A stretch of DNA of 64,000 nucleotides from a phage: sequence record PX880101.1. One strand, written 5' to 3'. Shown one piece after another: positions 2,571 to 44,581 of the stretch (positions are counted from its first letter, which is position 1; every line of letters begins with the position of its first letter). Under the pieces are notes generated by a model. It worked only from the letters and a program-made list of their open reading frames with translations, ran no database searches and was not told the origin of the DNA. Made by a program: the position numbers and the translations under genes.

Positions 2571-3155
2571 ATGAAAATACTTCAAGAGTTTAAACTTTAC
2601 CAACCGGGATCTGGCGAATACCACGCCAACAAGGAAACCAAGGAGCTGACCCCTCAAGAGGTTGAGGACTACACCGCATACACTGGGTATTTTTTACGTA
2701 ATGATGATGGCGATTGGTATGTGCAGTCACGAACATTACGACAAGAAAATCCGGGTTGTATCTTCCTACTTGTTGACGAGAAGGGAATTCTTAAGACATC
2801 TACAGAAGAACCTGATGCCTTATGGCCTGCTCCAGGTCTTCGTGTGGTTATCGCCAAAAAAGAAGAGGTACCAGAAAACATTATGCTTCACCACGACGCT
2901 TTGCGTTTAGTTGGTGATGAATTTGTCACAGACAATGAATTCTTTGTTCAACAGGCAGAGGGTGTCATAGAGACAGAACTTGCTTGGGCTACTGCTAGAA
3001 TTGGTGCCTATCAAGACATGATTGACCTTGAATATGATCTTACTGATGACCAGAAACGCAACATCAGAGATTTGAAAATGTACAGGGTAAAACTTCTTGA
3101 AATAGATACATCTAAAGCCCCTGACATTTTCTTCCCGGAGCGACCTACCCTCTAA
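2571..3155 (+). CDS. putative tail fibre assembly/chaperone protein
   Basis: 194-aa ORF directly after a fibre gene, strong RBS; size and position fit Tfa-like chaperones; assignment is positional. Confidence 0.35.
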   Translation: MKILQEFKLYQPGSGEYHANKETKELTPQEVEDYTAYTGYFLRNDDGDWYVQSRTLRQENPGCIFLLVDEKGILKTSTEEPDALWPAPGLRVVIAKKEEVPENIMLHHDALRLVGDEFVTDNEFFVQQAEGVIETELAWATARIGAYQDMIDLEYDLTDDQKRNIRDLKMYRVKLLEIDTSKAPDIFFPERPTL

Positions 3156-3166
3156 GAGGAGGTGTT

Positions 3167-3481
3167 GTGGAGTTGGATTTGGCGGCATTGTACGGTATCT
3201 GCATGGGTACCGTTGTCCCGATCTGTGTATGGGCTTTCAACCAGTGGCACACCAAATGGAAAGGCATTTCCAAGAGGTTAGATGAGCTGGAGAAAGACCT
3301 CATTTTAGTGAAAAATAGCATGGTTACAAAAGATAGACTTGATTCCATTATCGAGACCCGGTTAAGTAAGCTAGAGGCCGATATTAACGACCTTAAGCAA
3401 GATGTCAGGACAGATGTCTCCGGTATCAGAGCTGATGTGCAAAAGATTTTACACATGCTTGTAGAGCATAGTAAAAGGTAA
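3167..3481 (+). CDS. membrane-anchored coiled-coil protein
   Basis: GTG start after RBS aagaggagg; hydrophobic N-terminus (ICMGTVVPICVWAF) followed by heptad-like charged region. Confidence 0.45.
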   Translation: MELDLAALYGICMGTVVPICVWAFNQWHTKWKGISKRLDELEKDLILVKNSMVTKDRLDSIIETRLSKLEADINDLKQDVRTDVSGIRADVQKILHMLVEHSKR

Positions 3482-27027: not shown

Positions 27028-28397
27028 TGGAAAAAGGGCAGTATGATGTAGGCACAGATGCTGCCCTTGTTGCAATCATGAGTGGGGAGAATGTCTTCGT
27101 TTCAGGACCCGCAGGTTGTGGGAAGACGTACCTCATCAACATGATCCAGTCAATGTATGGAGACTCTTGCATAACGGTTGCCCCGACAGGGGTAGCCGCT
27201 TTAAACGTTAATGGAGCAACAGCACACCGAACCTTCGATCTTGCAGCAGGTGTGAGCATGGAGTCTGACTGGACTGCAATAAGGGCAAAAACAGCAAAGC
27301 CTTTGAAAAGCAAGGCATTTACCATCCTAATTATCGATGAAATCTCTATGATCCGTGCTGATAAGTTTATAGAGATGGATAGGAAACTCCGCTTCCTTCG
27401 AAAAAATGACAAACCTTTCGGAGGCATACAGGTCATATTGTTTGGCGATTTTTACCAGGCACCTCCTGTTGTCTCTTCTATGGAGAAGGAGGCCTACTTC
27501 AACTTCTACCACACAGACCTATGTTGCTATACCGAATCTTGGAAAGAGTTGGACCTTCACAACATAGCCCTAATAGACCAGTTCCGACAGGAGTCTATTC
27601 GATTTGCCACAATGCTCAACTGTGTTCGTGAGGGTCGTCGCATAAAAGAGGTTGTAGCAGAACTTAATGCTCGCTGTTACAAAGGCGGTGTACCAACAGA
27701 CGCTCTCACAATTTGCGCCACCAACAAACAAGCAGAGGAAGTGAACAGAAGGTTCTATGATGCCATCAACGCCCCAGAGAAGGTATACACTGGTGAAATG
27801 AAGGGTAAGTTTCCCTCCACCCTGCCAGTTGAGCAGGAGATGAAGTTGAAAATTGGCATGAAAGTTATGATAACCGCCAACGATGTTGACCCGACGCACA
27901 AAGTACCTTATTATGTTAACGGAACACGTGCCACAATTGTTAAATTTAAGAACAAGGCGGTGGTGGTAGAGCTTGAAGATGGAACACAGGTTGACATAGA
28001 GCAGAGGTTGTGGGAAAATAACGAGTATAAGCCATCTCAGAGATACAACATTGCAGAAAGGAAGATGGAGAAGTTTATAGAGAGGGTAGTGATTGGATCA
28101 TACAAGCAACTTCCTCTGAAATCTGGGTACGCCGTAACATCTCATAAAAGTCAAGGACTTACGCTAGATTGTTACAACCTAGACCTTGGAAAGAACGGAG
28201 CTTTCTCTCCTGGGATGACGTATGTCGCTTTGAGTAGAGTTAAGACAATACAAGGAATAAACTTGTTGCGTCCACTAAGAGAGGTTGACATTATTGTTGA
28301 CCCGCGAGTCGTAGAGTTTTACAATACAACATTCCCTGACTTAGACAAAATTGTCAGGAAAGATTTTGAAACCAGAGCAGAAGAGGGGGACGTATGA
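27027..28397 (+). CDS. Dda/RecD-like superfamily-1 DNA helicase
   Basis: Walker A GPAGCGKTYL, Walker B ILIIDEISM, conserved AVTSHKSQGLTLD motif. Confidence 0.7.
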   Translation: MEKGQYDVGTDAALVAIMSGENVFVSGPAGCGKTYLINMIQSMYGDSCITVAPTGVAALNVNGATAHRTFDLAAGVSMESDWTAIRAKTAKPLKSKAFTILIIDEISMIRADKFIEMDRKLRFLRKNDKPFGGIQVILFGDFYQAPPVVSSMEKEAYFNFYHTDLCCYTESWKELDLHNIALIDQFRQESIRFATMLNCVREGRRIKEVVAELNARCYKGGVPTDALTICATNKQAEEVNRRFYDAINAPEKVYTGEMKGKFPSTLPVEQEMKLKIGMKVMITANDVDPTHKVPYYVNGTRATIVKFKNKAVVVELEDGTQVDIEQRLWENNEYKPSQRYNIAERKMEKFIERVVIGSYKQLPLKSGYAVTSHKSQGLTLDCYNLDLGKNGAFSPGMTYVALSRVKTIQGINLLRPLREVDIIVDPRVVEFYNTTFPDLDKIVRKDFETRAEEGDV

Positions 28398-28735
28398 GTT
28401 TGTGGAGAAATATCGTTAACTACGTGTGCGGCAATCCAACTCCTGAAGAGAAGGATGTTGTGATTCACGATTTTACTAAAAGATCTCGTGAAAAAGATCT
28501 ACTGCTAACAAAGGTGACTGATAAAGATCCTGCAGTAGGGGACTGGGCAGGTTTTGCGTTTACATCGGACAAATACACCTTTAACAAAGGTGACTACCTT
28601 GTTGTGGATTTTAACGAAGACATTGAGGGTGCTGAACCTTACTATCAAACCCTTATTGTTGCAGGGTGTGTTGATCTCTCTGCAGGCATGCACAGTTTGA
28701 TTCTTTTTGAGCTTGACTCTGAAGACCTTGAGTAG
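28394..28735 (+). CDS. hypothetical protein
   Basis: 113-aa ORF, 4-nt overlap with the helicase gene. Confidence 0.5.
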   Translation: MSLWRNIVNYVCGNPTPEEKDVVIHDFTKRSREKDLLLTKVTDKDPAVGDWAGFAFTSDKYTFNKGDYLVVDFNEDIEGAEPYYQTLIVAGCVDLSAGMHSLILFELDSEDLE

Positions 28736-28795: not shown

Positions 28796-29098
28796 ATGAA
28801 ACGTTATAAACCATACACTTTTGAAATCGATTTCGAACTTGACGATATGTTTACTGTGGAAGCTCAGGCAGTTGTCCAGTTGCCAGACTCGGAGTGCCGT
28901 GACTCTGATGTTGACTATTACGGGTTTAGACAAATTACCGATGTGCGTGTTTACCACAACGGTGAAGAGGTGGACTTCCACCAACTGCCAAACGATATGC
29001 GCCACTCAATTTACAAACGTGCAGCCCGTGAACTAGAGTCCTATCTGGATGCAGCGACGACAGCAGCTGCATTTGCTGAAGAAGTGGGAGGTTTCTGA
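28796..29098 (+). CDS. hypothetical protein
   Basis: 100-aa ORF, RBS aagga, preceded by a GC hairpin. Confidence 0.5.
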   Translation: MKRYKPYTFEIDFELDDMFTVEAQAVVQLPDSECRDSDVDYYGFRQITDVRVYHNGEEVDFHQLPNDMRHSIYKRAARELESYLDAATTAAAFAEEVGGF

Positions 29099-32930: not shown

Positions 32931-35360
32931 ATGAGCATGTGGTCGTTCGATTTTGAGTCATCCGGTTTGCTGGAAGACCCAGATCTTTATTATCACTGCG
33001 GTCTGTTTAAAGAGCTGAATAAGAACCGTTTTATGCTGTTCCTTCCTCTAAATGACCGCACACACTACTCCGAGGAGGATATAGAAAAGGCTAAGAACTT
33101 CATTCTGGCAAAGAAAACTCTTTATAAAGATTTTGAAGTTCGCATAGCAGATTTTTCGGAGTTGGAAGGTTGGCTTACAGGCAATTCCGACTGGTCACCA
33201 ACAGCTTTGAACTGCCATAACTGCTACAGTTATGACTTTATGCTGATGGAGAGATTGTCCGGTATTCATTTTGATATGTTCCGTGATCCTAAATGCATGG
33301 GGACTATCAACGACCACCAGGTTAACCTGTTTGATACGTTGGCGATGAGCCGAATTTTGTGGCCTGATCGCCCTCTACCAAAAGGTTGTCCGGACGCTGT
33401 ATTCAACCCGGTTACTAAGAAAATGCAGCCTGTTGGTCCTCACGGCCTTATGGCATGGGGCTACGCCCTTGGTAACCAGAAAGTTCAAATTGATGACTGG
33501 CGCGATCTTCCGTTGTGGAAGTATGTGGATCGTGTATTCGAGGACGTTATCATCCAGGAGCTGCTCTGGAAAGAGCTGGTAGCGGAATCAAAAGGTGTAT
33601 TCTACGGCAAATCTGACATGCAGAACTTTATGTACGATCCTGCCAAAGAGAAGCCGAAAGGGTTCAAGAAGATCACCTGGAAGAACGCATTACGCCGGGG
33701 TATGCTGCAGCACTTCCTGATGGAGCTGCAGGCCCGTCAGGGTGTATATTTCGACATAGATGGAGCTATTGCTTTACGTGACCGTTGTGATGCGTGGATG
33801 AAAGAGATCGCTGATCGTGTTGAACCTCAACTTCCTTTAAAAGAGTTGTCAATGTCTCAGCGGCCCAAGTTCCCTGAAAAGCCGTTTAACCAAGATGGGA
33901 CAATCTCCAATAATGGTTGGAAATGGTTAAAAGATAAGCTTGGCTATCCTGTGGACATGAGCGCTTTAGAGTTCAAAGCCCCACCTAAGCGAGCATTTAC
34001 CTCCACAGGGGATGTCAGTAAGATGGGGATAAAATGGTGTGAAGAGATGGGCTGTAAAGACCCTGATAAGATGGCTGATTTCTTGAGGGGCTATATTAAG
34101 GGCACCTCCACACCACAACCTTTACCTAAAGAGCTAATGGATCAGGCAATAAGTGATCTACAGCAGAAGCGAATGCCTGACTGCAAGATACCTATGAAAA
34201 TCAGCAATCAGGACGACATTAAGCGATACCTGATCAGTGCTGGTTGGCTTCCGACAATGTGGAGAACTAAGGATGTAACTAAAGACAGCAAGAAGAAAGC
34301 TCTACCTGATGCAGATGTTGATGCACGAGTATATGCATATATGGACGAGCTTTTAGAGTCAGAGTATTGTGACCTGATTATCAACTTCTGGAACAAAACT
34401 GATGCTAAGTTCCAGACAACCGTGCACAAGTTCCGAAGCTTTCCTAACTCCGAAAGGATTAAAAAGGAAGTATTCGGGAAAATACGTAGAAAAGCCAGGG
34501 CACTTATTACTTCTCCGCAACTGAAAGATACGTTTGGACACCTATGTCCGAATCTTGAAAAATTGAACGGAGAGATGGCTAAAGATATCGTCTTGTGGTT
34601 ATCCTTGCGAAACCGCAGATCGGTCCTTGATCCAATCAAGGAGGATAAGGTTGATACTGGTCTTCTTAATCACCCACGTTTGAAGATTGACCATAAGCTT
34701 CCTGCTAAAAGTTCTGGATTAACAAACACTTCCCGACAGAAACACAGTATTTGTGCGAACATGCCTAAACCATCTCCTAAAGTGGTTATGGGTAAAGAGA
34801 TGCGTAGTCTGTGGGGTGTTCCTCCAGGATACTTTGAGATTGGTATTGACGGGTCCAACTTAGAGCAGCTTATCGGGGCTTGGGGTGCCTTTGAGTTCGA
34901 CAACGGCTTGTATTATGATGTTGTAAGTAACGGGGACGCACACCAAAACAATGCTGAGGCATATACAAAAGTAGCAGGTAGAGAGGTGTCTCGTAACGAC
35001 GGTAAACCTATCACGTATGGGGTTATGTATGGGGCACAAAAAGATAAAGTTGCAGATATGCTGGACATCTCTCCAGAGTTGGGACAAAGGGTAATCGATG
35101 CACTCTGGGATGCCAACCCAGGTCTTAAGGGGCGCAAAGAGGATCTGGAGAAATTCTGGGAAGCAACAGGTAAGAAGTTTATCTACTCTTTTGATGGTCA
35201 TGCTATCTGGACCCGATCTAAACACTCTTTACTTAATGCATACCAACAAAATGGCGGTGCATCGTTGTGTGACTTAGTTGGAATACTCATGCACCACCAG
35301 ATGGTGAAGCGTGGGTGGTACGATGAAGGTGTTCGTCGTATTATTTATTACCATAAATAA
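32931..35360 (+). CDS. family-A DNA polymerase, 5' exon with 3'-5' exonuclease and polymerase motifs A and B (inferred splice donor after 35354)
   Basis: Exo I FDFESSGL; motif A IGIDGSNLEQL; O-helix region RNDGKPITYGVMYG; the ORF stops at …RRIIYYHK* exactly where motif C (HDE) should follow. Confidence 0.75.
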   Translation: MSMWSFDFESSGLLEDPDLYYHCGLFKELNKNRFMLFLPLNDRTHYSEEDIEKAKNFILAKKTLYKDFEVRIADFSELEGWLTGNSDWSPTALNCHNCYSYDFMLMERLSGIHFDMFRDPKCMGTINDHQVNLFDTLAMSRILWPDRPLPKGCPDAVFNPVTKKMQPVGPHGLMAWGYALGNQKVQIDDWRDLPLWKYVDRVFEDVIIQELLWKELVAESKGVFYGKSDMQNFMYDPAKEKPKGFKKITWKNALRRGMLQHFLMELQARQGVYFDIDGAIALRDRCDAWMKEIADRVEPQLPLKELSMSQRPKFPEKPFNQDGTISNNGWKWLKDKLGYPVDMSALEFKAPPKRAFTSTGDVSKMGIKWCEEMGCKDPDKMADFLRGYIKGTSTPQPLPKELMDQAISDLQQKRMPDCKIPMKISNQDDIKRYLISAGWLPTMWRTKDVTKDSKKKALPDADVDARVYAYMDELLESEYCDLIINFWNKTDAKFQTTVHKFRSFPNSERIKKEVFGKIRRKARALITSPQLKDTFGHLCPNLEKLNGEMAKDIVLWLSLRNRRSVLDPIKEDKVDTGLLNHPRLKIDHKLPAKSSGLTNTSRQKHSICANMPKPSPKVVMGKEMRSLWGVPPGYFEIGIDGSNLEQLIGAWGAFEFDNGLYYDVVSNGDAHQNNAEAYTKVAGREVSRNDGKPITYGVMYGAQKDKVADMLDISPELGQRVIDALWDANPGLKGRKEDLEKFWEATGKKFIYSFDGHAIWTRSKHSLLNAYQQNGGASLCDLVGILMHHQMVKRGWYDEGVRRIIYYHK

Positions 35361-35630
35361 CATTGTGGCTTCATAGAGTAATCTATGTCGAATAACCTCT
35401 TTAACTGCGGGAAGCCTAAACCTTATGGCAAGGTAATCCGCAACGAAGCGCTCAAAAGAGCGAACGCTCAGAGGCCATTCCGAAAGGAAGTAGACCAGCA
35501 AGTGCGGTCGAAATGGGAGGATTCCTGTGGTTGCTTATCATAGGAATATGAGATGGTCCGATCCTACGTGAAAACGTATGGCTATGCACGTAAAGGTGCG
35601 GGGTAGCTTAACGACCTACCTGAACTATTG
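35355..35630 (+). ncRNA. group I self-splicing intron (276 nt, no internal ORF) within the DNA polymerase gene
   Basis: 5' exon ends in U (35354), intron ends in G (35630); guide sequence CAUU|GUGG (35361-35368) pairs with both exon ends; P-like CUGCGGGAAG (35405-14), Q-like AAUCCGCAACG (35435-45), P7 GACCA (35493-97) with UGGUC (35554-58); splicing restores …YYH-DEYQLQV…. Confidence 0.7.
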
Positions 35631-35984
35631 GATGAGTACCAACTTCAAGTCCCTGACACACCGAAGTATAAGACTGTGTACACCTTCGACACAATCGAAG
35701 AACTGGAAGCATTTAAGGCAGAGCAGGAGGCCAAACTTCATGTGTTCGACGGTCATAAGTACAAAAAGGCACGCAAGGATGAGGACGGAAACGAAGTGGT
35801 TGACAGAGACGGAAACACGGTGTACGATCCTATCCTGAATGATGACGGAAAGCTTGAACTTATCTGGAGCCCTGTGGGTGAAATGGTGGTGCATTGCTTC
35901 TGGCAAGCTTCTAAAATGATGGGCGTCCCGTTCCAGATCACAGGTGAATACTTGTGTGGTCGTAATTGGGGTGATTGTCACTAA
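35628..35984 (+). CDS. family-A DNA polymerase, 3' exon with motif C and C-terminus (coding sequence inferred to begin at 35631)
   Basis: Begins DEYQLQV (motif C HDE after joining to exon 1) and ends …GRNWGDCH, resembling the T7 DNA polymerase C-terminus …GPNWAICH. Confidence 0.7.
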   Translation: MDEYQLQVPDTPKYKTVYTFDTIEELEAFKAEQEAKLHVFDGHKYKKARKDEDGNEVVDRDGNTVYDPILNDDGKLELIWSPVGEMVVHCFWQASKMMGVPFQITGEYLCGRNWGDCH

Positions 35985-38809: not shown

Positions 38810-39178
38810 ATGGAACAAATGAACGATCAAGAGTCGGTTGCGATGAACGAGCAAGAACAACCTCAAGAATTTTTCTTAGGGTTAAGTAAAGATCAAGTGT
38901 CTCTTTTGCTAGTGCTTTCTTCTTTCATGGGAAGACTTCAGGAGCTCACACAACAACCGGAGGCTGAACAATTATTTCAGGCTCTGCGTGAAGAAGAAAA
39001 ATATCGTCGTTTGGACTATGCCTTAGGTTGGGTAGCTCAACAACGAGATATGTTGATGGCCCTCTCTGGGACCACAAGTTTTGCAATGGGCCTGTTGGCT
39101 CAAGTTCAGGACAAATTAATTCAAGCAGGGTTTGCACACACGGCAAACACTAACGAAGAACAAGGAGACAAAGAATGA
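38810..39178 (+). CDS. hypothetical protein
   Basis: 122-aa ORF, RBS ggaga; preceded by a hairpin. Confidence 0.5.
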   Translation: MEQMNDQESVAMNEQEQPQEFFLGLSKDQVSLLLVLSSFMGRLQELTQQPEAEQLFQALREEEKYRRLDYALGWVAQQRDMLMALSGTTSFAMGLLAQVQDKLIQAGFAHTANTNEEQGDKE

Positions 39179-40446
39179 GCGTTATTCAACAATTCGCTAA
39201 CCCGATGAATCCGCGTGAAACTGTTTTACTGGCTCACGGCATGATTAAACGCGTCAGCATCAAGCCTATCAAAGGTGCTGATCCTACAACAGGTATTAAA
39301 ACCACTGTGTGGCAAGGTAAGAAAATTGAGTCCAGCCACACCATCTCTTTACTGATTTCTGAACTGGATTCCTCTGATAACCTACTTCAAGGTGGTGAAG
39401 AAGTTTGGATCAGTATGGGCGATAAGCTGCTTAAACCGGGTCATCAAGACTCTGTCTCTGTTAAAATTGATGACAAGTGGGAAACCGTAACGCCAGGATG
39501 GATCGTAAATATCCCTTTGAAGGCAAACGAGCATAACGGTAAGACCTACTACAAAGGCTCACTGGCTAAGATGGTTAAGCTGGGTGCAGGAGAGACTCCA
39601 GCAGCGACTCAGCAGCAAAAACCGCAACAAGGTGCACAATCACAAGGCCAGAAGCAGAAACCTCAGCAGAATGCCAATCAGGACGTTTTACGCATCTATG
39701 GTGATGTGACTCAGATTGTTGGCAACGTGGTTACTGTTAATGACCACAAGATTGGCGAAGGTGCTATGGTTGTAACTGATGAGCAGCTTAAAGACCTGGT
39801 GGTAGGTGGTCGTGTTGCAGCCATTGTTGACAAAGACACCGGAAACATTATCAGTGGTTTCAAAGCCTATCCTCCTAAGGCAGAGAACGGTACTCAAGGC
39901 TCTGGTGGCAAGCGTAAATCCTCTTACGACCCTATCGGTGTGGAAACGGGGCATAGCATCAATGCGTTGCAAATCATCCTGGATCGCGGGTTTAAGGTAG
40001 ACGACCCACTAGGAGTGGCTAAAACACTACACGTAGTCACTATTGAGCTTAAGAAAGAGTATGCTCAAGCCACCAACCGAACTGAAGATGAAGTAGGTGC
40101 CAGTGTCGGTAATGCGGTGTTGAACGCTTGTCGCCGTATTGACAAGAAAACGAAAGTTGATGATTTTGCAGCGGCAATTACTGCAGAAGCAAAAGATGTC
40201 TTGACTAATCTGGCTGAGCCGTTGTACGATTGGATCAAGAACGGTGCTGGGTCAACTGACCATCAAGAACCTCAGGCTGCCAAACAGGAAGCAGCTCCAC
40301 AGCAAAACACTGTAGACGCTCCTCCTGTAAATGATGGGGAAGATGACCCGATGGATCAGAATCCAGCACAGTATGACTTCTGTGATGACATACCTTTCGC
40401 TCCGGTAGGTCTGCAATATGGTAAAAGTAGAATCTACGCATTGTAA
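39175..40446 (+). CDS. putative ssDNA-binding/replisome accessory protein with Gln-rich linker
   Basis: 423 aa; low-complexity [26 protein letters not shown] linker; acidic …DFCDDIPF motif near the C-terminus recalls acidic-Phe tails of T7 replisome proteins; function unproven. Confidence 0.3.
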
Positions 40447-41041
40447 GAGGTGCATCAAGTGCGGAGAGGTGAAAAACCTCTCCGAGTTCTACAAACATCC
40501 AAAGATGGCTGACGGTCATCTTAATAAGTGCAAAGAGTGCTGTAAGAAGGCCAGCAGAGAGGCTGACCAGTTTTCCCACGACTCTTCAGAAAAAGGTGTA
40601 ATACGCGTGCTGTACAAGGCTCAAAAGTGCAACAGCAAGCAAAGAGGTCACCCTCCTCCGACTTACACCAAAAAAGAGTTTAAGGAGTGGCTATACCTGA
40701 ACGGTTACAAAGAGTTGTATGATCAGTGGGTAGCCAGCGGATACGACAAAAGGAAAAAGCCTTCTTGTGACAGGATAGATGATTTCAAAGGGTACTCTTT
40801 TGATAATATCCGTTTAACAACCTGGGGAGAAAATAAAGACAAGCAGACGGAGGATATTCTGTTGCATAGAAGCACCAGCGGTAGACGGTGTAAAAATGTA
40901 AGGAGGCTGGACATGAATGGCAACGTTCTTAAAGAATGGGTATCCCACAATTCTTGTAGAAGAGAAACCGGAATATGTGTTGATTACTACATTCATGAAA
41001 AAATTCCAGCTCCCGATGGATACCTCTATGAATACTTTTAG
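40418..41041 (+). CDS. HNH/zinc-finger homing-endonuclease-like protein
   Basis: N-terminal [19 protein letters not shown]…[11 protein letters not shown] zinc ribbon; later [26 protein letters not shown] resembling HNH-type nuclease motifs; overlaps the upstream gene by 29 nt. Confidence 0.45.
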
Positions 41042-41056
41042 CACCTAACTGACATA

Positions 41057-41085
41057 GCCCTGCCCGAAAGGGTGGGGCATTTTTG
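41057..41085 (+). terminator. intrinsic terminator (repeated element, copy 2)
   Basis: Identical gccctgcccgaaagggtggggc hairpin plus T5, directly after the HNH gene. Confidence 0.6.
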
Positions 41086-41103
41086 TATAAGGAGATCTGA
41101 AAA

Positions 41104-41520
41104 ATGACATTAGAAGATATCATTGTTAAACCTGAGAACTATGACCAATACAACCTGTCAACTCAATCTGTAGACCTTGGATGCGCCACGGTCAGTGCGT
41201 GGATGGTTAACGGAAAAGAGCTGGATAAATGCTTAGAAGCTCACATGTCTATTAACAAGTTTCTGGATGAAAATACTCACTGGCTTGAGGGTGCAGGTGT
41301 ATATGCTTCATGGTTGGAGAGTATGGGATTCGACTACCAATCTGAAGAGGGGTGGTGGAGCTATTTAGCTATCTGCCCAGAGACGCTGCAATGCTTCATG
41401 AAATATTCTGAAGATTTGGAGTACCGGGCGGTGGTTGATAGTGCTATTGCCCGTTATAGCCGTAAACCTTTTTCCCACGACATTAAAACTGTGGAAGAAT
41501 TTGTTGAAGTTTTCTGTTGA
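41104..41520 (+). CDS. hypothetical protein
   Basis: 138-aa ORF, RBS aaggaga. Confidence 0.5.
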   Translation: MTLEDIIVKPENYDQYNLSTQSVDLGCATVSAWMVNGKELDKCLEAHMSINKFLDENTHWLEGAGVYASWLESMGFDYQSEEGWWSYLAICPETLQCFMKYSEDLEYRAVVDSAIARYSRKPFSHDIKTVEEFVEVFC

Positions 41521-41616
41521 CACAAGTTGAAAGGTGTGCAATTATAACTTCATAGAACGGGAGGACGTGATGAACGAAGAAAACTGGGATGTATAACTAA
41601 CAGGAGGCCACTGCCC

Positions 41617-41814
41617 ATGATTTATCGAATCCGTGTAAGAGAAGATGCACCAGGCTGTTACTTTGACTGGCGTGGGTGGTGGTTTCTCCACCCAATGGAT
41701 GGACTCACAGATAGAATGCTGGAGGCTGCCCTTTATACAGATACCGACATAGAATATAATCTTTATCTGAAGGACGGTATAGATAACGGCCTGTTTGAAG
41801 CAATTCCTGTGTAA
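41617..41814 (+). CDS. hypothetical protein
   Basis: 65-aa ORF, RBS aggagg. Confidence 0.45.
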   Translation: MIYRIRVREDAPGCYFDWRGWWFLHPMDGLTDRMLEAALYTDTDIEYNLYLKDGIDNGLFEAIPV

Positions 41815-41882
41815 GAGACTATGATAGCCATGTTTTATGATCTTCCTGTAGCACCACCACCTGTTGAACCCGGAGAACTAAG

Positions 41883-42308
41883 ATGATCTATGAAATGCCA
41901 AAACTGATTCGCGACGATGCCCAAAACGCCCACACCTTTATCATGGGCAAGCGCATGGATATTATTTGTCATAAAGACTTCTGGGAAGGGAGTTACTTCA
42001 CAGAGTATTTTGGTAAACTGGACAATGGTCTGCTGATCCAGTTCTACACCGATGCGGAAAACAACATTCACTGGGAGTTCGAAACTGAAGATATCCATAA
42101 ACTTTTCACCTTCCTCGGTATTAAGGTTGAGGCCAAGTTTGAAGAAGGTGAGTGCGACGATTGTGGATTCTATGAGGTAACAGATTTCTACCTTCCAAGT
42201 GGTAAAAATCTCTACTACGAAAGCCACTTCGGCAACTCAAATATGCCACAGTGTTGGGATGAGTTTTTGGAAATTGCAGAAGAGGAGCTGGAATACCGTG
42301 ATTATTGA
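41883..42308 (+). CDS. hypothetical protein
   Basis: 141-aa ORF, RBS ggaga. Confidence 0.5.
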   Translation: MIYEMPKLIRDDAQNAHTFIMGKRMDIICHKDFWEGSYFTEYFGKLDNGLLIQFYTDAENNIHWEFETEDIHKLFTFLGIKVEAKFEEGECDDCGFYEVTDFYLPSGKNLYYESHFGNSNMPQCWDEFLEIAEEELEYRDY

Positions 42309-42756
42309 TACTGTAGAGGGAGATCTAATCTCCCTTTTCAAGAAAGGGGCAGGACACATGATCCACGGTTGCAACTGCTTTCACACAATGGGTGCAGGCA
42401 TAGCGAAAGATATTGCCCGTGAGTTCCCTCAAGCATTGGCAGCAGACAAAGAGACTGCTTATGGTAATCTAGACAAGCTGGGTATGTTTTCTTGTTGGGA
42501 GCATTTTGCCAAGAACAAGGTTGTATATGGAATCAACCTATATACTCAGTTCTACCCAGGACCTAATGCTGAATACTTCTCAATCATGAAAGGCTTTGAG
42601 CGAGTCAACGAGGTATTCAAAGGTATGTCATTACCGTTCTACATTCCTAAAATCGGATGCGGTATTGGTGGTCTAAAGTGGGAACACGTGGAAGACGTCA
42701 TTAATCTTGCCACCACCGACATCGATGTGATCGTGGTGGAGTACAAAAAGTGTTGA
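42296..42756 (+). CDS. macro-domain protein (ADP-ribose binding/processing)
   Basis: GTG start overlapping the upstream stop; VIIDTVEGDL…MIHGCNCFHTMGAGIAKDIAREFP and later IPKIGCGIGGL match the macro-domain glycine-rich loops; ORF open from 42199 upstream. Confidence 0.5.
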
Positions 42757-42810
42757 CGACCATCTTCTGAGGTGATATAGTTTCCACAACAACTAAGAGA
42801 GGAGAGCACT

Positions 42811-42981
42811 GTGGAGACTAAAATCTTAATTCTTGCTGTGGTAGATACAACCGAAGGAGCTATATTCGAATCTGCAGGAGGGTATTTCTACCTACCATAC
42901 GGAAAAAGAACTTCCGAGCCAAGTAAAGATTCAATCCTCAAAGTGTTCCCGTGTGCTTTCTGGCTGGAGATTTTGGTATAA
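42811..42981 (+). CDS. small hypothetical protein (56 aa)
   Basis: Not in ORF track; GTG start after RBS agaggagag. Confidence 0.25.
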   Translation: METKILILAVVDTTEGAIFESAGGYFYLPYGKRTSEPSKDSILKVFPCAFWLEILV

Positions 42982-43007
42982 GATTGCAGAGGATTTTGGA
43001 GAGAATT

Positions 43008-43202
43008 ATGAGAAACAAGAAAGAGCTTTACTCTGGCGAGTGGATTAACGATCAACAGATCGGAGAGGTAACCTGCTTCCGATGTTTTACCAGGTACAAT
43101 ATTAAAACTGCACCAAAAAGTGTTCCAAAGACTGACGGTTATTACATAAAAGAACCTCATTGCCCAAAATGTAAATGCCGATTGTACTGGAGCAATCTGT
43201 AA
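43008..43202 (+). CDS. small zinc-ribbon protein
   Basis: ATG 43008 after RBS ggagaga; CFRCF…CPKCKC cysteine pairs. Confidence 0.45.
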   Translation: MRNKKELYSGEWINDQQIGEVTCFRCFTRYNIKTAPKSVPKTDGYYIKEPHCPKCKCRLYWSNL

Positions 43203-43265
43203 GAGGTTGACATCTGAAAACTGCAGTGTATAATATACGCATAAACTAACAGAGAGTGATGTATT

Positions 43266-43457
43266 ATGGTAATTTTTAACCGGGATGGTATCATAGTTAG
43301 ACAGCACCCGTTCCTTGAATACTATCAAATTGAGCAATGGTGCTACGGGGATTGCAGTCACTCCTATGGGCAAAGTTGGGGATATCGCACAGTTTTTGAA
43401 TCAACAGACCTTGACAAAGTAAGACAGAAAGTTTTAGAACTTATTAACAACAAGTGA
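43266..43457 (+). CDS. hypothetical protein
   Basis: 63-aa ORF. Confidence 0.4.
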   Translation: MVIFNRDGIIVRQHPFLEYYQIEQWCYGDCSHSYGQSWGYRTVFESTDLDKVRQKVLELINNK

Positions 43458-43466
43458 GTATGATAT

Positions 43467-43799
43467 ATGGTAACATTAGAAAGACGTAAAGCTATCGCCG
43501 CCACACTGGCAGACATCTTTTGGGATTGCAACTTAAAAGATACCAGAAATTGTGGCGCATCTGTAGATGTATTATTCCCACGGCCCACCATTGTTGCAAT
43601 GGGAAACCTGTTAAACGTAGTGTACGGAGCATGGGACAAAGAAGGTGGATTCTATATCTGGCAACCTGACTACAGAGCCTGGAAAGAGGTAAGGGGTGCG
43701 GTTGACTTTGGGCCTGCAAGTGCTAAGATGGATGGCTGGGAAATTTATGTTGGAAACGACATGAAGCTGAAAGGCGAGATTGTTTACTGGTTACCTTAA
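43467..43799 (+). CDS. hypothetical protein
   Basis: 110-aa ORF. Confidence 0.45.
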   Translation: MVTLERRKAIAATLADIFWDCNLKDTRNCGASVDVLFPRPTIVAMGNLLNVVYGAWDKEGGFYIWQPDYRAWKEVRGAVDFGPASAKMDGWEIYVGNDMKLKGEIVYWLP

Positions 43800-43819
43800 G
43801 AAAGTGCAGGAGATAAAGT

Positions 43820-44065
43820 ATGAACAAAGGGTGGACATTTGTAGACGGAGTTAAAAACATGCCTCTAGGAAAGTATATCGTAGCCATGGCTGATGAGGAT
43901 GGCAATGTAGATTTCGGAGCTTGCGAGGTTGTTCTTGCAGGATCTGGTAACTATGTGAGTAAAACCGGGATAATTAACGGTCAGTTCTACTTTGATCACA
44001 ACCCTGTTGTAGCGTATATGGCTATGCCAGAGTTCAAGTTCCCAAAGGAGGGTGCAGATGTTTAA
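43820..44065 (+). CDS. hypothetical protein
   Basis: 81-aa ORF, RBS aggaga. Confidence 0.5.
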   Translation: MNKGWTFVDGVKNMPLGKYIVAMADEDGNVDFGACEVVLAGSGNYVSKTGIINGQFYFDHNPVVAYMAMPEFKFPKEGADV

Positions 44066-44255
44066 GCTTAAATCTGCATGGAACATCGCTGTGGGGGACG
44101 AGATCCGTATCCCAGGTGGAAAGACCATTATGAAGATATCTCGTATTGAGTACGAAGGTGACCGTGTATTCCACATCTTCGCAGAAGATGGTCGAGAAAT
44201 TTATATACAGGCAGGTTCTCACATTTATATCCGTAAGAAAGGGGACGACAAATGA
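44052..44255 (+). CDS. hypothetical protein
   Basis: 67-aa ORF, RBS aaggagg. Confidence 0.45.
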   Translation: MQMFKLKSAWNIAVGDEIRIPGGKTIMKISRIEYEGDRVFHIFAEDGREIYIQAGSHIYIRKKGDDK

Positions 44256-44581
44256 CAGAGATCATCATTTCAACTGCAGGGTATGTGTTCCTGACAATCA
44301 TTGCACTGACTATTTTGGTGACAGTGTATGGGTTTGTTATCCTTCCTATCCTTGAGACATTTAGTTTGTGTCGGTGTTGGAGAAAAGCTTACGGTCCACA
44401 ACCATGGAAGGACTGGCCCCACCTGGTGCGCTTAGCGTTCTCTTATGCTTACGATCACTCCAGTAGTGCATGCATAACCGGATACCACGCCCACAACTGG
44501 AGCTGGGAAGGATTGAGGAAATGGAATGTTACAAAGACCATACCTCTACGCATGTACAAACCTAAAAACAAAGACAGCTGA
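44252..44581 (+). CDS. membrane protein
   Basis: 109 aa; N-terminal TM segment IIISTAGYVFLTIIALTILVTVYGFVILPIL; last gene of the replication block. Confidence 0.5.
   Translation: MTEIIISTAGYVFLTIIALTILVTVYGFVILPILETFSLCRCWRKAYGPQPWKDWPHLVRLAFSYAYDHSSSACITGYHAHNWSWEGLRKWNVTKTIPLRMYKPKNKDS

Follow-up and report, generated by a model that had tools for sequence, protein, structure and literature searches.

Among the open reading frames (ORFs) of a 64,000-nucleotide stretch of phage DNA (sequence record PX880101.1; here called the window), one listed at 42199-42756 raises the question of whether the phage carries its own enzyme for handling ADP-ribose and, if so, on what that enzyme would act. 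This ORF holds the peptides quoted in an initial annotation, which had proposed a macro-domain protein with two glycine-rich ADP-ribose-binding loops. That proposal was borne out. The Pfam check it had called for gave a match to the Macro profile (PF01661) at 26.1 bits, above the gathering cutoff of 22 and spanning profile positions 1 to 117 of 118; the phrog_335 profile matched at 3e-60; and both loops are conserved across 108 homologs. The segment at 42298-42756 is a real macrodomain gene rather than a chance motif. The features of the locus are as follows.

41057-41078, + strand: predicted terminator-like hairpin followed by a T-run, the upstream unit boundary; a terminator is also predicted in Gotham
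41517-41545, + strand: predicted sigma-70-like promoter, TTGACA-17-AATTAT with TG, from a consensus scan; predicted also in the Gotham record
41883-42308, + strand: upstream gene of 141 amino acids, matching phrog_8157 over its full length (1-141 of 141); function unknown
42281-42287, + strand: Shine-Dalgarno-like AGAGGAG, read from the sequence, 10 nt 5' of the GTG
42298-42756, + strand: coding sequence of a stand-alone macrodomain protein of 152 amino acids, with a GTG start and a TGA stop at 42754-42756
42753-42781, + strand: predicted sigma-70-like promoter, TTGACG-17-TATAGT with TG, from a consensus scan; a promoter is also predicted in Gotham

The 2-kb macro region shares 96 to 97% nucleotide identity with many rV5/FV3-like E. 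coli myophages of the genus Vequintavirus, including PMBT16, FV3, slur12/16, and several BASEL phages. The closest protein relative, at 99.3% identity, belongs to Gotham (Vequintavirus murica). Near-identical proteins in GenBank are variously labeled "Macro domain protein," "phosphatase," "Poa1p-like," or "hypothetical."

A second question was where the gene begins. The initial annotation had preferred a GTG over the ORF-track start at 42199, and this preference stood; its coordinate of 42296 did not, as positions 42296-42298 read CCG and the GTG occupies 42298-42300. The true start is GTG 42298, favored over both GTG 42199 and ATG 42259 because of the annotation of relatives, a conserved Shine-Dalgarno sequence, the N termini of homologs, and the substitution pattern. 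GTG 42298 is annotated identically in FV3 (RefSeq), slur12, nomine, and Gotham, while ATG 42259 is the start in the PMBT16 record only. The AGAGGAG is kept in PMBT16, FV3, slur12, and nomine. Macrodomain homologs are about 145 to 160 amino acids long, which speaks against N-terminal extensions; the homolog in phage JK32 starts with ATG-ATT-ATT-GAT and has just four open codons 5' of that ATG, and the alignment with T4 Tk.4 starts at residue 1. Extensions from GTG 42199 or ATG 42259 were rejected, the candidate upstream start codons not being conserved among relatives. A macro-coding role for 42199-42297 was likewise rejected: the stretch evolves in the frame of the upstream gene and not in the macro frame. 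Compared with FV3, slur12, and nomine, it carries 1 to 2 synonymous versus 10 to 12 nonsynonymous changes in the macro frame and 6 to 8 versus 3 to 4 in the upstream-gene frame. From 42298 on, the macro frame is rich in synonymous changes (synonymous to nonsynonymous, 14:5, 22:7, and 41:24 against the same three phages), so that the synonymous bias of the upstream-gene frame holds up to 42297 and switches to the macro frame at 42298.

The stop codon of the upstream gene (TGA, 42306-42308) falls within macro codons 3 and 4, and the resulting 11-nt overlap with the gene at 41883-42308 suggests that the two are translationally coupled. The macro gene lies on the + strand within a long row of small codirectional genes, downstream of a replication module that comprises rIIA/rIIB, helicases, a primase-helicase, and a family-A DNA polymerase. 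Its flanks encode small proteins with no Pfam match at an E value of 0.01 or below except Phage_zn_bind_2, together with an endonuclease VII-like PHROG match. The promoter at 41517-41545 is the probable start of a unit made up of 41617-41814, 41883-42308, and the macro gene, and the one at 42753-42781 overlaps the macro stop codon, at the start of the next small-gene unit. On the + strand of 40000-44500, 17 sigma-70-like sites were found, versus 8.0 ± 2.7 in shuffled sequences, an enrichment that would be consistent with a gene block read by unmodified host RNA polymerase. A perfect sigma-70 consensus (TTGACA-16-TATAAT, 12 of 12 positions) is found at 43207-43234 on the + strand. Two genes downstream of the macro gene, an ORF at 42951-43202 (+) matches the "Phage zinc binding domain" (PF23903) at an E value of 1.8e-22; its annotated start varies among relatives.

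Several features of the surrounding DNA differ among close relatives. A free-standing gene at 40418-41041 (+) encodes an HNH/endonuclease VII-like protein of 207 amino acids (phrog_1035, 9e-41; no Pfam hit), the 5' end of the gene overlapping the 3' end of ORF 39175-40446. PMBT16 and slur12 also have the gene, but at the corresponding site it is absent from FV3 and nomine, where the preceding 1,227-nt gene abuts the intergenic region; it looks like a mobile insertion of the homing-endonuclease type. The family-A DNA polymerase gene is interrupted by a group I self-splicing intron at 35345-35580 (+), detected with the full Rfam RF00028 model at 64.7 bits against a gathering threshold of 50 (E value, 4e-14). 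Relative to PMBT16, the intron is a 276-nt insertion at 35355-35630 with no homing-endonuclease ORF inside, and it splits the polymerase gene into ORFs 32931-35360 (809 amino acids) and 35628-35984 (118 amino acids), compared with a single 925-amino-acid coding sequence in PMBT16. The insert is at least 95% identical in 24 phage records, rV5 included (at least 99% in 23 of them), and absent in many relatives; it is therefore polymorphic within Vequintavirus. A DNA methyltransferase gene is also variably present: PMBT16 has a 1,326-nt gene annotated as [quoted passage not shown] between the homologs of window ORFs 28394-28735 and 28796-29098, and the window has only a 60-nt spacer between 28735 and 28796. 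Finally, some 14 to 16 "Campylobacter phage" records (MG065646-MG065689, for example C15, D1, and A141), with Campylobacter jejuni as their stated host, show 96 to 99.7% nucleotide identity to this E. coli Vequintavirus over the 2-kb macro region and a 311-bp intron query. Most probably they are E. coli phages whose host was misassigned or that came from a mixed lysate.

What kind of macrodomain does the gene encode? A very confident AlphaFold2 model built on an alignment of 108 sequences (pLDDT, 96.7; pTM, 0.91) has the three-layer alpha/beta/alpha macro fold. A sequence search of solved structures returned SCO6735, the DarG macrodomains of M. tuberculosis and T. aquaticus, yeast Poa1p, BT1257, and human TARG1. 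When the family profile was searched against the PDB, these SCO6735, DarG, Poa1p, BT1257, and TARG1 proteins were the significant matches (E values of 3e-15 to 5e-9), and the sole further match was a weak one to TTHA0132 (2dx6; E value, 2.2e-4). This places the protein in the ALC1-like class (TARG1/DarG/Poa1p/SCO6735) rather than with the MacroD or viral X-domain type. In both sequence and structure it is nearer to ALC1-like members than to the MacroD, viral X-domain, PARG, or macroH2A types. DarG models scored best in NCBIfam and PADLOC, matching by their macrodomain portion only and far under the full-length cutoff; for NF048014 (DarG), positions 3 to 143 of 338 were matched at 47.7 bits against a cutoff of 250.

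Conservation was then read over the 108 homologs, which are 36 to 96% identical to the query, with positions conserved in at least 90% termed nearly invariant. Three motifs stand out.

42364-42405, + strand: loop 1/catalytic-side motif H23-G-C-N26-C-F-H-T-M-G32-A-G34-I-A36, from HMMER alignments to 5e3b, 5m3i, and 6lfu
42535-42549, + strand: N80-L-Y82-T83-Q84 motif, with Q84 at the catalytic-Lys position
42643-42675, + strand: loop 2, predicted to bind diphosphate, I116-P-K-I-G120-C-G122-I-G-G125-L, from conservation and alignment

In loop 1, G24, N26, C27, G34, and A36 are invariant and G32 and A33 nearly so, as is H23, which aligns to a His of Poa1p. N80, Y82, T83, and Q84 are all invariant. 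In loop 2, whose counterparts in the alignments are PRIGCGLAGG in SCO6735 and PPLGVGNGGL in DarG, P117, G120, and G122 are invariant and I119 and G125 nearly invariant. With the 20-residue tag of chain 5e3b taken into account, the HMMER alignments place Q84 at the position of DarG K80, TARG1 K84, and SCO6735 Gln85, and N26 at that of SCO6735 Asn27 and a conserved Asn of DarG; G24 falls opposite SCO6735 Val25. At the position of TARG1 Asp125 the phage protein has Gly, as does DarG.

The Gln85 of SCO6735 has been equated with TARG1 Lys84; the Q85A substitution abolishes and N27S nearly abolishes hydrolysis of thymidine-ADP-ribose by SCO6735; and a water-mediated mechanism has been proposed in which the Gln positions the distal ribose (PMC9411070). 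SCO6735 outperforms DarG and TARG1 on DarT-modified DNA and can rescue E. coli from DarT; on guanine-linked ADP-ribose it shows no activity (PMC9411070). The mobile loop of SCO6735 and BT1257 is five residues longer and carries Lys89/Lys94, thought to aid DNA binding by SCO6735 (PMC9411070). The query has a gap of five residues relative to 5e3b right after Q84-F85. The phage protein joins the Gln chemistry to a loop of DarG/TARG1 length. We consider it very likely that the protein is a catalytically competent ALC1-like ADP-ribosylhydrolase, its activity being predicted.

What would such a hydrolase act on? Over its whole length, the window protein shares 39% identity with T4 Tk.4 (positives, 67% in an alignment of 153 columns; E value, 3e-43). 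In a HIDEN-SEQ preprint whose evidence on this point is entirely genetic, tk.4 alone among T4 genes was depleted on a DarTG2 host, and a clean tk.4 knockout made T4 sensitive to DarTG2; the authors renamed the gene adfM, for "anti-DarT factor macrodomain" (10.1101/2025.11.20.689424). A second phage macrodomain, PhiKZ gp104 (AdfM), strips DarT2-made ADP-ribose from DNA in vitro and neutralizes DarT2 toxicity (PMC13309987). The initial annotation had suggested, with due caution, a counterdefense factor against ADP-ribosylation-based immunity; the homology to T4 Tk.4 supports that suggestion and narrows it to DNA de-ADP-ribosylation. Its wider wording, which had also named NAD-derived signaling as a target, fared less well: DNA de-ADP-ribosylation is better supported than NAD-derived signals, because the protein combines the ALC1-like class with full-length homology to T4 Tk.4, which is needed against DarTG2.

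We therefore favor, with a probability of roughly 60%, the reading that the protein strips ADP-ribose from phage DNA and so defeats the bacterial DarTG2 defense. That it acts on thymine-linked ADP-ribose in DNA and that it counters DarTG2 are inferred from homology, and the timing of its expression is predicted from consensus promoters alone. On this model, host-type promoters would drive the gene within the small-gene block downstream of the replication module. Host DarT2 toxin, freed during infection, would ADP-ribosylate phage DNA at thymines where it is single stranded; the two glycine-rich loops of the macrodomain would then take up the ADP-ribose, and Asn26 and Gln84 would hold the distal ribose in position. 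The N-glycosidic bond might then be hydrolyzed by an activated water, as proposed for SCO6735, rather than by the Lys-based chemistry of DarG and TARG1. Free ADP-ribose would be released and thymine restored, allowing replication to proceed, and the protein would act in effect as an orphan antitoxin without a toxin-binding domain.

The ecological setting is compatible with such a role. DarTG systems are present in E. coli (EPEC; PMC7003065), and NADAR-type AdfN acts against DarTG1 in three other Vequintavirinae, Bas60 to Bas62 (PMC11825919); DarTG pressure on the Vequintavirinae is therefore evident. Against an anti-DarT2 role, 39% identity to Tk.4 is no assurance of a shared substrate, macrodomains of the ALC1-like class are promiscuous, and the phage protein lacks the Lys89/Lys94 mobile loop linked to DNA binding in SCO6735. 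The literature searched yielded no study in which a Vequintavirus macrodomain was assayed or Vequintavirinae were challenged with DarTG2.

Other substrates could be imagined for the same fold. The protein might process small soluble ADP-ribose derivatives instead of DNA adducts, as an ADPr-1''-P phosphatase, an O-acetyl-ADP-ribose deacetylase, or a destroyer of ADP-ribose-derived immune signals, Thoeris cyclic ADPR isomers for example. Iyer et al. argue from context that most phage macrodomains target molecules of this kind (PMC9503650), and the GenBank "phosphatase" labels would be accounted for. Those labels, however, are transferred annotations and not experiments, the only genetic phenotype of a full-length homolog (T4 Tk.4) is DarTG2 sensitivity, and the invariant Asn-Gln pair corresponds to the residues that SCO6735 needs for thymidine-ADPr hydrolysis. 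Moreover, no partner gene of ADPr or NAD metabolism occurs among the 90 ORFs of the 64-kb window, in which a Pfam scan found no Nudix, NADAR, ART, sirtuin, DarT, or 2H domain. A small-molecule substrate is thus unlikely. The same scan bears on the idea of a housekeeping role alongside a phage-encoded ADP-ribosyltransferase, in which the protein would serve self-immunity or recycling as in ART-Macro and sirtuin-Macro pairs. Such pairs occur in some phages (PMC9503650), and one distant tblastn match falls within a gene that a Microbacterium phage record annotates as an ADP-ribosyltransferase; with no ART, sirtuin, or DarT among the 90 ORFs of the window (genome, ~137 kb) and neighbors that are small proteins of no assigned function, a partnership of this sort is highly improbable here.

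The remaining alternatives turn on the active site. Absence of the DarG/TARG1 catalytic Lys (Q84 here) and the Gly at the TARG1 Asp125 position might suggest a noncatalytic ADP-ribose binder, a sponge or reader domain. SCO6735, however, has the equivalent Lys-to-Gln state and yet outdoes DarG and TARG1 on thymidine-ADPr DNA (PMC9411070), and N26 and Q84 are invariant over homologs 36 to 96% identical, as expected of catalytic or positioning residues; we regard mere binding as very unlikely indeed. A broader eraser deserves somewhat more thought, one that would remove protein (Asp/Glu-linked) or RNA (uracil-linked) ADP-ribosylation laid down by host ADP-ribosyltransferase toxins or defenses other than DarT2, possibly in addition to DNA marks. 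TARG1 and SCO6735 hydrolyze Glu/Asp-linked protein ADP-ribose (PMC9411070) and act on uracil-linked RNA ADP-ribose (PMC13036486), and the phage protein belongs to the class of both and has the Gln of SCO6735. SCO6735 nonetheless strongly prefers a DNA substrate in competition assays (PMC9411070), the phenotype of the T4 homolog was DarTG2 specific in the reported screens (10.1101/2025.11.20.689424), and the literature searched yielded no bacterial defense that would mark phage components reversibly through Asp/Glu or uracil linkages, so we give this reading little weight. A bolder version, which we advance only as a speculation with the odds against it, is that Tk.4-type macrodomains, the present one among them, represent a distinct third catalytic solution in the ALC1-like class, pairing an invariant Gln for Lys, as in SCO6735, with the short loop of DarG/TARG1, and could be broad erasers of marks on DNA thymine and on RNA uracil or acidic protein residues. 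If true, one small broad-eraser gene could disarm several ADP-ribosylating defenses beyond DarTG2.

Should the favored role in stripping ADP-ribose from phage DNA hold, rV5-like phages would come already equipped with an enzyme that counters DarTG2. Such phages are often put forward for phage therapy and for the biocontrol of E. coli O157, and the gene would help to predict host range on DarTG-positive E. coli. They would also constitute a second major phage lineage with Gln-type AdfM enzymes, whose chemistry is unlike that of DarG. The present analysis supplies a corrected gene start and a specific predicted function in place of the labels "phosphatase" and "hypothetical protein."

Among known systems, the protein most resembles T4 Tk.4 (AdfM). 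Both are stand-alone proteins of about 150 amino acids with end-to-end homology, over 152 and 155 residues, and the core motifs HGCNCFHTMG and NLYTQF-PGPN-EY are identical in the two, including the Gln at the catalytic-Lys position. At the level of sequence, the window protein is the predicted Vequintavirus counterpart of T4 Tk.4 and a member of the Tk.4/AdfM family. The genomic settings differ: T4 tk.4 sits between vs and tk, whereas the window gene sits 3' of the family-A DNA polymerase among a block of small genes, has a GTG start, and overlaps an unrelated upstream ORF. The phrog_335 family unites T4 Tk.4, PhiKZ gp104, the JK32 homolog, and the window protein, and tblastn found homologs in 2,836 phage records, T4-like tk.4 genes among them at about 38 to 44% identity. 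In the Krischvirus JK32, a Shigella phage, the gene in the tk.4 slot between vs and tk (JK32 positions 3001-3456) encodes a protein 67.5% identical to the window protein, far above the 39% of T4 Tk.4 itself; this suggests that an adfM-type gene may have been laterally exchanged between the Krischvirus and Vequintavirus lineages. PhiKZ gp104, a DarG2-like antitoxin of a chimallivirus, is likewise a stand-alone phage macrodomain with the conserved Asn of loop 1 and the G-x-G-G-L of loop 2, but it is only 22% identical and has a DarG-type Lys (FPTKDNW) where the window protein has Gln (LYTQFYP). It is also imported into a phage nucleus, a structure not known from Vequintaviruses.

Outside phages, SCO6735 shares the Gln at the catalytic-Lys position (Q84/Gln85) together with the conserved Asn (N26/Asn27). 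The window protein differs from SCO6735 of Streptomyces coelicolor (PDB 5E3B) and BT1257 of Bacteroides (PDB 2FG1/2AFC), both orphan ALC1-like proteins, in being only about 22 to 24% identical and in lacking the longer mobile loop and its lysines, and from SCO6735 in having Gly24 in place of Val25, whose proposed role is via the backbone. Strict membership in the SCO6735/BT1257 subclass was ruled out by the short loop. Unlike DarG (PDB 5M3I, 5M31, and 7OMU), the protein is a single domain of 152 amino acids with Gln in place of Lys80; membership among the DarG antitoxins was rejected, as it has no C-terminal DarT-binding domain, no darT neighbor, and no catalytic Lys. In the one bacterial homolog examined, a chromosomal gene of Pelagimonas whose product is 40% identical, the gene stands alone among housekeeping genes with no adjoining toxin. 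The catalytic dyad of TARG1/OARD1, Lys84/Asp125, is absent (Gln84 and Gly). To yeast Poa1p the resemblance is structural; Poa1p is an ADPr-1''-phosphatase and the source of the inherited "phosphatase" label in GenBank and PHROGs. The role of the AdfM family has already been assigned in T4 and PhiKZ, and the Vequintavirus protein is predicted, from its sequence, to be an added member.
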